64,000 bases of DNA from a marine group bacterium Sva0996 bin134. GTDB lineage: Bacteria; Actinomycetota; Acidimicrobiia; Acidimicrobiales; Bin134. This document shows, piece by piece, positions 33,875-37,776 of this stretch (position 1 is its first letter; each line of letters opens with the position of its first letter). The stretch spans positions 4,595-68,594 of the forward strand of contig MPNQ01000005.1 in the NCBI GenBank assembly GCA_002239105.1, written 5' to 3'. The notes under the pieces are model-generated. The model saw only the letters and a program-made list of their open reading frames with translations. It had not been told where the DNA came from and did not search any database. The position numbers and the translations under genes are program-made.

Positions 33875-34285
33875 ATGGCAGAGCAAGCATTCACCGATGA
33901 GGAACTGCGCCAGCGGCTGACCGCCGAGCAGTACCACATAACCCAGCAAGCCGGCACCGAACGGGCCTTCACCGGCGAGTACTGGGACTGCAAAGACGAG
34001 GGCATGTACCGCTGCCGGGTGTGCGACGAGCCGCTGTTCTCATCCGACACCAAATACGACTCGGGCACTGGCTGGCCGTCGTTCTACGAGGAAGCCGGCG
34101 AGGGCAAGGTGGACCGCAACACCGACGCCAGCCACGGCATGGTGCGCACCGAGGCAGTGTGCGGATCGTGCGGGGCGCATCTGGGCCACATCTTCCCCGA
34201 CGGCCCCCACCCCACCGGCGAGCGCTACTGCATGAACTCGGCTTCGCTTAGGCTCGACCGCGACACCTCCGGAGAGGAGAACTGA
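33875..34285 (+). CDS. msrB: Peptide-methionine (R)-S-oxide reductase
   Basis: [33 protein letters not shown]. Confidence 0.96.
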
Positions 34286-34286
34286 C

Positions 34287-35063
34287 ATGGGAAGGCTCGA
34301 CGGCAAAGTAGCCATCGTTTCCGGCGGCGCCCGGGGCCAAGGCGAGGCCGAGGTGCGGCTGTTCGCCGCCGAGGGCGCCAAGGTGGTGTTCGGCGACGTG
34401 CTCCACGACTTGGGCGAGGCGGTGGCCGCCGATGTGGGCCCCAATGCCCACTACCTGCCCTTGGACGTGACCGACCCCGAGGCGTGGCAGAAGGCGGTGG
34501 CCGAGACCACCAGCCGCTTCGGCCCCCCCACCGTGCTGGTGAACAACGCCGGGGTGCTCCTGTTCGGCGTGTCCATGGTGGACACCTCGCTGGAGGACTA
34601 CATGCGGGTGATCAACATCAACCAAGTGGGAGTGTTCTTGGGCATGAAGTACACCGTGCCGGCCATGATCGAGGCCGGCGGCGGGTCGATCGTGAACATC
34701 AGCTCCACCAACGGCATCGCCGGCTACGGCGGCACGGTGGCCTACACCGCCTCCAAGTTCGCGGTGCGGGGCATGACCAAGAACGCCGCCCTAGAGCTGG
34801 GCAAGCACGGCATCCGAGTCAACTCCATCCACCCCGGCGGCGTAGACACTGCCATGACCGCTCCCGACACTCTGGGAGACGCCATTTCCGACGAAGAGCG
34901 AGAAGCGACCTTCGCCATGCTCCCCCTGGGCCGTGTGGGCCAACCCGTCGAGATAGCCCACCTGGCCGCCTACCTAGCCTCCGACGACTCCTCCTACAGC
35001 ACCGGCGCCGAATTCATCGCCGACGGCGGAATGCTCGCCGGAGTGGTCAACCCCGAGGTGTGA
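34287..35063 (+). CDS. Short-chain dehydrogenase/reductase (3-alpha-hydroxysteroid dehydrogenase-like)
   Basis: SGGARGQG, NNAG, YTASKFAVRGMTK. Confidence 0.92.
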   Translation: MGRLDGKVAIVSGGARGQGEAEVRLFAAEGAKVVFGDVLHDLGEAVAADVGPNAHYLPLDVTDPEAWQKAVAETTSRFGPPTVLVNNAGVLLFGVSMVDTSLEDYMRVININQVGVFLGMKYTVPAMIEAGGGSIVNISSTNGIAGYGGTVAYTASKFAVRGMTKNAALELGKHGIRVNSIHPGGVDTAMTAPDTLGDAISDEEREATFAMLPLGRVGQPVEIAHLAAYLASDDSSYSTGAEFIADGGMLAGVVNPEV

Positions 35064-35108
35064 TTCAGACCAATACACACGGGCGCTTATGCGCTAAAGA
35101 TTGATTTA

Positions 35109-35149
35109 TCAATCATCTATATTTACTAAAGATAAGAATAGATGATTGA
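35109..35149. terminator. AT-rich inverted repeat between convergent genes
   Basis: Perfect 12-bp arms TCAATCATCTAT / ATAGATGATTGA with a 17-nt spacer. Confidence 0.5.
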
Positions 35150-35153
35150 GCCA

Positions 35154-35939
35154 CTAACTATACATACTCGATGATATATAACGCCGAAAATCTGGATGGT
35201 CGGGATGCCAACACATATGAGAATCTTTATAGAAATCGAGGTACCATCCCTCGGGGCATGAGCGTGAACTGACAAAGAGGCGGTTGCTTATTTGGCTTGT
35301 TCCTACACACCTGGAGAGTTTGAAATTTATCATCTCGCACTCCAAGAGCTCTGCCATTCCCTGCAGGAAGGCCTGAGTATCTTCGGCATTAACGCATTCT
35401 CTAGTAGAAATTTCCGGATCTATGCAGGCATCCTGGAAATCCAACAACCTAATCCACTCTCGGAAGAACTCTGTTGTTGGTAGCAAGGGTTCCAAGGTGT
35501 TCGCTATGACAGTCGTATATTCCTCGGTCGGTGTAACGCTGTTATCTTGGCAGCCGCCCGGAACCAGTTCAGTGTCTATGTTGAACTGGCAGCGGTAGAC
35601 GTTCAACAGCGCCTCCTGATTAGCAATCAGTTGGTCGCGAACGGTGATGTCTTGGGCGGTGGGACTACCGGAGAACGGGGCCGGGCCCTCAGCGGGCAAA
35701 ACAGGGACGCCATCAGCGCAGCCGCCGGGAACCACGCCGACATCCACGTCGAACATGCAGCGGTAGACGTTCAACAGCGCCTCCTGATCGGCAACCAGCC
35801 GGTCCCGCACCTCCACATCGGCCACCGACTGCGCCGCCGCCCCCGACGCCCCGACAAACCCCAACCCAGCAGCCAACACCCCCGCAACCACCACAATTCG
35901 CAACCACCGGCCCACAACCAACTGCCACATCCTGGTCAT
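35154..35939 (-). CDS. Secreted protein with duplicated RDxLxAxQEALLNVYRC…VPGGC module and AT-rich Cys-containing C-terminal domain
   Basis: Signal peptide ending in AAA-Q; two copies of a ~34-aa module 56 aa apart; start taken at ATG 35939. Confidence 0.75.
   Translation of the reverse strand: MTRMWQLVVGRWLRIVVVAGVLAAGLGFVGASGAAAQSVADVEVRDRLVADQEALLNVYRCMFDVDVGVVPGGCADGVPVLPAEGPAPFSGSPTAQDITVRDQLIANQEALLNVYRCQFNIDTELVPGGCQDNSVTPTEEYTTVIANTLEPLLPTTEFFREWIRLLDFQDACIDPEISTRECVNAEDTQAFLQGMAELLECEMINFKLSRCVGTSQISNRLFVSSRSCPEGWYLDFYKDSHMCWHPDHPDFRRYISSSMYS
35550..35812. repeat. Intragenic direct repeat with 168-bp period
   Basis: Identical 32-mer GCAGCGGTAGACGTTCAACAGCGCCTCCTGAT at 35589-35620 and 35757-35788. 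Confidence 0.9.
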
Positions 35940-36076
35940 CCTAACCCCACCCCCACCGCCCTCTTCCCACCCACACGGTGATTGTGGAACGCTCTGCTGA
36001 GCGGTATGGTCAACAGGAATCACTCGGGGACGGTGAAATAGAGGTCCCCCTCCAAGAACACAACCGAGGAGGCCGC

Positions 36077-36496
36077 ATGACGGTGAGTGAGCCAATCGGC
36101 GAGGAACGGCGCTTTGCGCTGATTGAGCGCCTAACCGAACTACTGGGGAAGGAGGAGGCCAGAACACTTATGGAGAGCCTTCCCCCCGTGCTATGGACCC
36201 ACCTGGCCACCAAAGACGACCTACGCGCCCTCGAAGAACGCCTCCGCGCCGACTTCAACGGTCAATTCGCCGTGCTCAACGGCAAATTCATCGAGCTCCG
36301 CGCCGACTTCAACGGCCAATTCGCCATGCTCAACGCCAAAGTTGACGGCGGATTCGCCAATGTTGAAGCCGCGTTCAAAGAACACCGGGCTGAGACCACC
36401 CTTCAGCTGGCCAAGCAGACCCGGGCCATGGTGATCACGCTTATCGGATTCGCAATGTCGGTGTGGATCCCAATGCTGATCTTCGGCCTCTCCTGA
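36077..36496 (+). CDS. DUF1640/CCDC90-like coiled-coil protein with C-terminal TM
   Basis: LATKDDL motif, heptad-like stalk, terminal hydrophobic helix; SD GAGGAGG. Confidence 0.8.
   Translation: MTVSEPIGEERRFALIERLTELLGKEEARTLMESLPPVLWTHLATKDDLRALEERLRADFNGQFAVLNGKFIELRADFNGQFAMLNAKVDGGFANVEAAFKEHRAETTLQLAKQTRAMVITLIGFAMSVWIPMLIFGLS
36242..36340 (+). repeat. 54-bp period duplication (LRADFNGQFAxLNxK twice)
   Basis: CTCCGCGCCGACTTCAACGGyCAATTCGCCrTGCTCAACG starting at 36242 and 36296. Confidence 0.88.
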
Positions 36497-36537
36497 CAGC
36501 TGCCTGCAAGGAGGGACAATCATCCCCGTATGAGGGC

Positions 36538-37776
36538 TTATCCCCCGGCGAGGACCCTCATGCGGAGGTTGTTGAGGACCGACACGGTGGTGAATTGGCG
36601 GGTGCGCTCGCGGTCGAAGGGGAACTTGACCCGGGTGGCCTCTACTTCGCCGTTGACCAGGGTGGCCATCCACACGGTGCCGGGGTCTTGGCCGTCTAAG
36701 GGGTCGGGGCCGGCTACTCCGGTGACGGCGATGGCGCAGTCGGCACCCAGCAGCTTGGCGGCGCCGTGGGCCATGGCGGTTACCGCCTCTTCGCTCACCA
36801 CTGGGCCTTCGGGCACTTCCAGCAAATCGAACTTCACGTCGCTGGCGTAGGACACCAGCCCGCCTCGAAACACGTCGCTGGCGCCGGGCACGGCGGTGAG
36901 CCGGGAACCGATCAGACCGCCGGTGAGGGACTCAGCCAGCGCCAGGGTCCAGCCCCGGCTGCGCAGGGCATCGAGCACGGCGGATTCCATGGTTTCGTCG
37001 TCGACGCCGAACACGATGTCGCCGATGATGCCCCGCACGATCTGCTCCTCGTTGGCCAGCATCTCGTCGGCGGCGGCCTCGCTGGGGGCCTTGGCGGTGA
37101 GCCGAACCTTGAGGCCCTCCATGCCCGAGGCCAGAAAGGCGATGGTGCACCCGCCGACCTCATCCAGCCGCTCGATCTCCTCGTGGAGCTTCTCGGCCAG
37201 ACCCGACTCGGAGTCACCCCAGGTGCGCAGCGTGAGGCTCTTGATCACCGCGGTGATCCCGGCCCGGGCCTTGAGATCGGGCAGCACGCACTCCCCCACC
37301 ATCTGCTGCATCTCCCAGGGCACGCCGGGCACGGCATACACCGCCTTGTCGCCGCTCTCGATCTTGAAACCGGCGGCGGTGCCGGGCATCACCGGCAGCA
37401 CATCGGCCCCTTCGGGGATGTCGGCCTGGCGCAGGTTGTTCTCGGGCATGGCTCGCCCCCGGCCCCCGAACACGGTCGAGATGCGCTCCACGATGTCGTC
37501 GCGCCGCACCAGCTCCACTCCCAGGGCCGCGGCGATCACGTCGCGGGTGATGTCGTCTTGGGTGGGGCCCAGCCCGCCGCACATGATCACCGAGTCGCTG
37601 CGCTCCAGGGACTGTTCCAGCACGGCCCGCATCCGCTTGAAGTTGTCGCCCACCTTCACCTGGTGATGCGAGTCGATGCCGGCCAGCGCCAGCTGCTCGC
37701 CGATCCACGACGAGTTGGTGTCGACAATCTGGCCGAGCAGCAGCTCGGTTCCTACCGCGATTACTTCACAGTTCAC
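36538..37776 (-). CDS. cinA: Competence/damage-inducible protein CinA (MoCF-like plus PncC domains)
   Basis: AVGTELLLGQIVDTN, GGLGPTQDDIT, AESLTGG, TGVAGP. Confidence 0.95.
   Translation of the reverse strand: MNCEVIAVGTELLLGQIVDTNSSWIGEQLALAGIDSHHQVKVGDNFKRMRAVLEQSLERSDSVIMCGGLGPTQDDITRDVIAAALGVELVRRDDIVERISTVFGGRGRAMPENNLRQADIPEGADVLPVMPGTAAGFKIESGDKAVYAVPGVPWEMQQMVGECVLPDLKARAGITAVIKSLTLRTWGDSESGLAEKLHEEIERLDEVGGCTIAFLASGMEGLKVRLTAKAPSEAAADEMLANEEQIVRGIIGDIVFGVDDETMESAVLDALRSRGWTLALAESLTGGLIGSRLTAVPGASDVFRGGLVSYASDVKFDLLEVPEGPVVSEEAVTAMAHGAAKLLGADCAIAVTGVAGPDPLDGQDPGTVWMATLVNGEVEATRVKFPFDRERTRQFTTVSVLNNLRMRVLAGG

Follow-up and report, generated by a model that had tools for sequence, protein, structure and literature searches.

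A duplicated cysteine-module head domain with exchanged C-termini in Candidatus Poriferisocius, a putative envelope tether

Many proteins of Candidatus Poriferisocius share a small head domain, built from two copies of a cysteine-containing module, on cargoes that are unrelated to each other, and the DNA behind this head is exchanged between strains and loci. We consider it probable (roughly 0.6) that the two-module domain is a non-covalent tether by which exported proteins are kept at the cell envelope, with the head and a hairpin 3' of the gene acting as anchors for exchange of the DNA behind the head. Sponge symbionts encode many exported proteins with host-like repeats, and the domain bears on how such proteins are retained at the surface of an actinobacterial symbiont that nearly lacks SLH domains. 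The analysis concerns a 261-aa gene in a 64,000-nucleotide stretch of DNA (the window, to which feature coordinates refer unless a contig or locus is named), for which an earlier note, made from the sequence alone, had proposed a conserved export/anchoring head that carries an exchangeable payload.

Results

Anatomy of the 261-aa gene and its insertion site

The gene (P0001) reads on the minus strand from an ATG at 35939 to a stop at 35154; its parts and neighbours are as follows.

35154..35939, minus strand: 261-aa gene (P0001), with signal peptide, two-module head, linker and six-cysteine tail
35832..35939, minus strand: predicted Sec signal peptide, aa 1-36, without lipobox (hydrophobicity and lipobox rule; cleavage site by eye)
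35718..35810, minus strand: module 1, aa 44-74, a helix and a predicted disulfide-closed loop
35643..35717, minus strand: Pro-rich linker joining modules 1 and 2
35550..35642, minus strand: module 2, aa 100-130
35589..35620 and 35757..35788, no strand assigned: the two identical copies of a 32-bp block
35484..35549, minus strand: Pro/Thr/Glu linker, the exchange zone, where identity between alleles starts or stops
35157..35483, minus strand: six-cysteine tail, AT-rich, of an uncatalogued family, one copy in the genome
35109..35149, no strand assigned: 41-bp AT-rich hairpin 3' of the gene, the conserved downstream boundary of tail exchange
36077..36496, plus strand: small divergent coiled-coil gene with a hydrophobic C-terminal segment, in the same islet
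34287..35063, plus strand: short-chain dehydrogenase-type gene, left flank of the insertion site
36538..37776, minus strand: cinA-type gene, right flank of the insertion site

The N-terminus is hydrophobic and ends in AAA-Q, by eye and by a hydrophobicity rule, in agreement with the signal peptide that the earlier note had predicted. The two Cys modules described there are also present; they start 168 nt apart, are 78% alike over 93 nt and share 32 identical bp (the longest exact repeat), but their conserved core comprises 31 aa, not 34. The distinct AT-rich domain with six cysteines and, nine bases past the stop, the AT-rich inverted repeat (arms 35109-35125 and 35133-35149) are as the note had them. 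A run contig that spans 34200-35618, including the head-tail junction, shows zero differences; this run is possibly the source of the assembly. The labels of the two flanking genes, assigned from sequence, are presumptive, and the coiled-coil gene, which we take to be DUF1640-like, has no Pfam match.

Among 29 genomes with both flanks, the inter-flank gap is shorter than 100 bp in 22 and holds varied inserts in seven; one run contig likewise shows the site empty, and one genome (G018) keeps the coiled-coil neighbour together with a remnant of the first codons of the 261-aa gene. The gap (35064-36537) is an insertion hotspot (orthologous sites L016, L019, L021, L029, L033, and L046), with inserts in different genomes that, by reading, we take to be toxin-antitoxin-like pairs, ATPase genes, a displaced msrB-like gene and an insertion-sequence end. 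The coiled-coil gene contains internal repeats of 21-33 nt, and this genome encodes six paralogues of it; in G037 and G044, too, one is located close to the gene with this tail family. As a general partner of the head, the coiled-coil gene was rejected, with only one of the six paralogues located within 5 kb of a head gene.

The head domain and its distribution

The two paired modules are predicted by AlphaFold2 to fold as one domain (pLDDT 94.6, pTM 0.82), in which two long helices are each followed by a Cys-closed loop; the complete head is 87 residues long. Across 636 modules, 12 of the 31 positions are 99-100% invariant, with six invariant positions being polar or charged (R2, Q9, E10, N14, R17, and D23), and the modules are spaced 56 and 52 aa apart in 233 and 75 proteins, respectively. 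Consistent with the earlier statement that the module fits no named family, searches of Pfam, NCBIfam and PDB sequences were blank, and Foldseek, VIA-align and ESM Atlas gave no named family for the head either. The structural check suggested in the note (i.e., AlphaFold followed by Foldseek) yielded a confident single domain and no usable structural match; the best fold match (Z 5.2, VIA-align) was to generic helical bundles, and no structural homologue backs an anchoring role. Blank family and structure searches are no proof of a new fold. Two candidate assignments were rejected: NIP_1 (Pfam; E 0.07, best 0.0014 among relatives) was judged a chance match, and a streptolysin S model (NCBIfam), which touches 16 of 42 heads (best E 7e-4) and leaves the window's own head untouched, was judged to reflect Cys/Gly composition. 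Full-text literature searches brought up no paper that describes the domain.

The profile search of this genome and its relatives that the note had proposed found the module in multiple copies, with 23 head reading frames in this genome on unrelated cargoes and 402 head clusters at 50% identity overall; C-termini differ, no characterised domain matches the module, and a GC step is present in the 261-aa gene, all of which sit well with the note's reading. Every one of the 40 genus genomes carries the head, the matches being named Ca. Poriferisocius, at 2 to 35 copies each; some genomes hold just two or three, and a one-contig genome (G001) holds single-module forms only. A family search returned the same 40 genomes, a single-sequence query found no head in 300 other Acidimicrobiia genomes, and a GTDB genome scan located at least 46 head loci, with those listed titled Ca. 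Poriferisocius, Acidimicrobiales or Acidimicrobiia. The head is an uncatalogued, genus-limited domain that resembles established surface-anchor modules and polymorphic C-terminal systems in its workings but belongs to none of them.

Decayed head genes and arrays of head genes also occur. One head gene in this genome has two in-frame stops in module 1 (G000:C14:70268-71035), and in G033, G034, and G009 the head was lost through deletions (L158, L159, and L160). Tandem arrays of eight (L013, G039:C1:3195500-3211500), three (L014) and four (L015) head genes were found, with one tail family each; the members of the G039 array differ mainly in a central tail segment.

Exchange of tails behind the head

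Tails are exchanged behind near-identical heads. In a set of 237 proteins, 34 pairs are at least 90% identical across signal peptide and head, and in 8 of these the two tails fall into different clusters; in one pair (P0065 and P0076) signal peptide and head are identical and the tails are six-Cys-type and RCC1, respectively. Together with the unrelated cargoes in this genome, these pairs bear out the proposed conserved head with exchangeable payload. Five tail types occur on heads within 72% of the head studied here, including four of seven Cys-rich tail families that are mutually unrelated in profile comparison (probabilities <40%) and have a short CPxG motif in common. In a tree built from 43 selected heads (the other 194 left out; P0065 labelled apart), six changes are required for the six-Cys tail, whose carriers are monophyletic in none of 200 bootstrap trees; a constraint that keeps 15 members together was rejected (p-AU 0.029).

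DNA comparisons locate the exchange. Two genes beside the same flank in G004 have heads with 78-81% DNA identity to ours up to 35549, followed by an unrelated tail. Run contigs from X10 and X7 (metagenomic, at a depth of 3-10) match the head and the hairpin region (57 of 57 bases), with 842 and 536 other letters between them, a replaced stretch that is known as a letter count alone; other X10 and X7 contigs carry our tail at 92-93% identity plus the hairpin, but their downstream flank is not ours and they no longer match past 35482. Identity thus ends at 35549 in the comparison with G004 and at 35482 in those with X7 and X10, and the breakpoints that could be read fall either where module 2 ends or within the linker that follows. 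The internal repeat, which the note had named as a possible recombination point, does recombine within genes, but the readable tail breakpoints lie at or after the end of module 2. An affinity switch just past the 32-bp block is suggestive of a crossover inside module 2 of the 261-aa gene. With regard to recombination between modules, identical codons at shared residues are more frequent within than between genes (0.80 vs 0.67; 10 heads of this genome, permutation p 0.0004), and identical inter-module runs of at least 32 bp occur in 22% of 90 heads vs 0.6% between genes; modules are homogenised within genes, and the 32-bp match is therefore a common feature that reflects intragenic conversion.

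The hairpin is linked to the tail family. It occurs once each in 6 of the 40 genus genomes, exactly those with this tail family (intact in G000, G037, and G044; decayed in G033, G034, and G009), and is 93-95% identical to ours where the preceding 380 bases are at shuffle level (0.45-0.47 vs 0.43-0.49). The five other hairpin genomes share a single locus and are therefore not independent of each other; this locus differs from ours, which implies one or more joint moves of gene and hairpin. A large conserved gene follows the hairpin in G037 and G044. The hairpin has no Rfam match, was not found in viral contigs and was not called by a terminator scan; it folds at about -23 kcal/mol on either strand, and may be a terminator that doubles as a short downstream recombination anchor.

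Ordinary duplication, domain shuffling and drift, with the hairpin as a terminator that travels with its gene, is a possible, though not the favoured, account of the tail differences. It fits the native composition of most tails, tandem arrays that hold one tail family (G039, G010, and G008), the position and stability of the hairpin right after the stop codon, and the lack of a dedicated recombinase nearby; it sits poorly with unrelated tails on identical or 95% identical heads and with the fully identical hairpin-region bases beside replaced tails, which indicate recent, repeated exchange. A terminator as the original job of the hairpin is compatible with a tethering head whose tails are exchanged.

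Composition of and selection on the tails

GC content is 0.63 in the head and 0.46 in the tail of the 261-aa gene (genome, 0.643), and only 0.6% of 9337 genome windows of 393 nt have a GC content as low as the tail. The best GC change-point is 35633 with a 2-lnL interval of 35520-35668, such that the low-GC DNA could begin within module 2; the abrupt switch placed near 35545 by the note falls inside this interval, but the step is less sharply positioned than that wording implied. The foreign composition claimed for the C-terminus likewise holds for this gene and not as a family trait, as no more than 11 of the 80 head genes with DNA show a GC drop of at least 0.10 (median drop, 0.025). Head and tail both have GC contents near 0.52-0.58 in G037 and G044, and the tails in G008 have GC contents of 0.34-0.36 behind heads of 0.63-0.65. 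HExxH-type tails with GC contents of 0.34-0.41 were observed on heads of 0.58-0.66 (L015, L018, L097, and L102; G008 and G043); those of G008 and G043 are the clearest cases of foreign DNA capture.

Close tail alleles are under purifying rather than diversifying selection, with dN/dS at about 0.22 (23/26 and 19/22 listed differences) and no cysteine altered among the listed differences; tips therefore evolve through being replaced and through divergence over long times rather than through rapid point mutation.

The six-Cys tail, found in about 19 of the first 121 relatives, is predicted to form two helices and a small strand region, with its first half repeated in some members. No family or fold match was obtained (Pfam, VIA-align with a best Z of 5.0, Foldseek, ESM Atlas), and a six-frame search with a tail profile (filters off; genome 94% complete) found this gene alone, i.e., no orphan tail copies. 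A word-based search with the tail alone returned its own protein only, vs about 19 relatives among head proteins by profile methods, and head-less relatives of the tail may therefore exist. One match to the tail in G013 (E 0.03) was dismissed as an unrelated protein. The tail has no recognisable catalytic motif and is a putative binding domain.

Cargoes and the case for envelope anchoring

In 322 head proteins, a set biased by its retrieval with a two-module query, the head is N-terminal in 308, C-terminal in 10 and internal in 4. None of these 322 has a lipobox or a C-terminal membrane helix, and neither they nor P0001 combine LPxTG with a membrane tail; two LPxTG-like words occur among head proteins, without membrane tail. 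In this genome, where the same cargoes also occur in 10 paralogues that lack the head, the lipobox rule is satisfied by 5 of these 10 vs 0 of 23 head frames. Cargoes active at the envelope include SBP_bac_5, Amidase_3 and transglycosylase-like proteins; further cargoes are RCC1, trypsin, CAP, Calx-beta, cadherin, LRR and peptidase M60. Conservation is highest for a transglycosylase-like carrier with a single module, which has strong matches in 39 of the 40 genomes; in 27 of 30 fetched loci its module caps a longer heptad helix.

Bacteria with a single membrane have to tether their binding proteins and wall enzymes, and a repeat domain found at the termini of unrelated cargoes usually serves this purpose. 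From the shared terminal position of the head and the tether need of its envelope cargoes we therefore infer envelope anchoring, which we regard as the probable role of the head on the strength of this domain context. Of the export/anchoring head proposed in the note, a conserved head on many exported-type cargoes is thus observed, and domain context suggests anchoring. Under this reading, the protein would be exported by Sec and its signal peptide removed, and the modules would form one small disulfide-locked two-helix domain whose invariant polar residues may bind a wall polymer or an envelope protein. The Pro/Thr linker would point the cargo outward, the cargo of the 261-aa gene being perhaps a disulfide-rich binding tip for a host or community ligand, the most tentative step. 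Recombination would be anchored upstream by the head and, in the case of this tail family, downstream by the conserved hairpin.

Other anchors are present in the genus. This genome encodes one sortase (G000:C3:2135-2524) and two plausible substrates (C2 and C64), and covalent anchoring therefore seems little used. SLH domains occur in 3 of 40 genus genomes vs 23 of 251 genomes across the order; because SLH is scarce throughout the order, its rarity in the genus is weak evidence, and the idea that the head replaced SLH is weakened accordingly. One genome (G012; L095 and L096) is the sole one with several multi-SLH proteins, on short contigs that are possibly bin contamination. Two small predicted lipoproteins (L099 and L100; G016:C28 and G003:C30) consist of a two-module head alone and are candidates for a membrane-to-wall tether or scaffold; two other proteins combine a head with one SLH repeat. 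Given lipid-anchored heads and head-SLH proteins, a head does not strictly preclude another anchor.

A second, unrelated duplicated Cys head takes the same position in other proteins and occurs in 31 of 40 genus genomes. It was seen behind signal peptides on RCC1 and other cargoes (L113:1032-1370, which is G000:C59:182531-182869, and L094), with up to 28 matches per genome and no Pfam match. A visibly homologous cargo, as judged by eye, carries the head described here in G041 and the second head in G015. Copy numbers show no anti-correlation between the first and the second head (rho 0.20, p 0.22), i.e., there is no sign of compensation.

Discussion

If the head does not anchor, it could be a self-association or folding domain that joins secreted cargo into multimers or stabilises it, with no binding target in the envelope, an explanation we hold to be rather unlikely. 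The helix of single-module forms continues as heptads with 7-residue insertions (51 vs 58 aa), which is typical of coiled coils, and the fold matches of the head are generic helical bundles; in two-module heads, however, the helices are predicted to pair with each other inside a single chain (pTM 0.82), and self-association alone leaves unexplained both the invariant polar residues and the loss of the lipobox from head-bearing solute-binding proteins. An elaboration of the tethering reading, in which heads dock a genus-specific receptor in plug-and-socket fashion and the 41-bp hairpin is a dedicated site for swapping disulfide-rich tips, including captured foreign DNA, for host or strain recognition, is speculative and in our view clearly unlikely. 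Binding of the head to a sponge host molecule, which would fix released bacterial proteins in the host matrix, is improbable. The six runs that contain the sequence nearly completely are sponge metagenomes, all marked as possible sources (no RNA run was listed, which has no bearing on expression), and host-like repeats and an M60 peptidase of mucin type are found among the cargoes; by contrast, the transglycosylase-like enzyme, the amidase and the ABC binding proteins act at the bacterium's own envelope, and the domain is confined to one genus even though other symbionts share the host. That the 261-aa gene encodes a small polymorphic toxin, with the variable tail as the part that kills competitors, as conserved N-termini with strain-variable, partly AT-rich C-termini at insertion hotspots might suggest, is highly improbable, given only 90 bp and no immunity gene between its stop and the convergent flank gene, no orphan tail copy in the genome, no toxin family match, and named cargoes that are mostly housekeeping or adhesion domains.

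A tethering head with exchangeable cargo would have several uses. The head is a marker domain for 2-35 likely surface proteins per genome (40 of 40 genus genomes, 0 of 300 others), and its size of 87 residues allows direct binding tests, for which the second uncatalogued head doubles the test case. Fusion behind a ready-made signal peptide and head would also provide a route from new, sometimes foreign, DNA to an exported protein.

Comparison with known systems

Integron cassettes carry attC hairpins, and the 261-aa gene resembles them in that an imperfect inverted repeat comes after an AT-rich coding segment, an arrangement present at several loci; it differs in that only the 3' half of the gene is exchanged and in having one hairpin per genome. 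The integron integrase model TIGR02249 gave four partial matches in this genome, none above cut-off. As a target of a diversity-generating retroelement the tail was rejected: differences between alleles affect all four bases and half are synonymous (dN/dS about 0.22), the genome has no match to reverse transcriptase (PF00078), and the tail is single-copy without a template repeat.

CdiA-CT/CdiI and Rhs systems combine a conserved N-terminal part with strain-specific C-termini, as set out in PMC6336857, which also proposes that CdiA C-termini are integrated by one-sided homology with non-homologous new 3' DNA. By analogy, such a one-sided model would fit very-low-GC tails such as those of G008. 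The head proteins share with polymorphic toxins the conserved N-terminus and exchanged C-termini; they differ in being small and Sec-type, in having no immunity gene, orphan cassette or toxin domain match, and in a conserved downstream hairpin that outlasts exchange. The analogy with polymorphic effectors drawn in the earlier note was accordingly dropped.

In dockerins, a duplicated short module forms one pseudo-symmetric domain on varied exported enzymes, and the head resembles them as a duplicated short module that is predicted to form one domain on varied exported proteins. Unlike dockerins, the head is mostly N-terminal and no cohesin-type partner was identified; the module consensus has no Asp/Asn calcium loop, Pfam and PDB sequences gave no dockerin match, and the dockerin fold is not among the listed fold matches of the head.

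SLH (Pfam PF00395), CWB2 and choline-binding repeats are non-covalent wall anchors. PF00395 has no match in P0001, in 56 aligned relatives or anywhere in this genome, and the head, with two Cys-closed 31-aa modules confined to one genus, differs from the three 44-aa repeats of SLH. In its architecture the head nonetheless resembles SLH, with short tandem repeats that act as one domain, sit at either end of the protein, are joined to the cargo by a linker and are found on many unrelated exported cargoes per genome.
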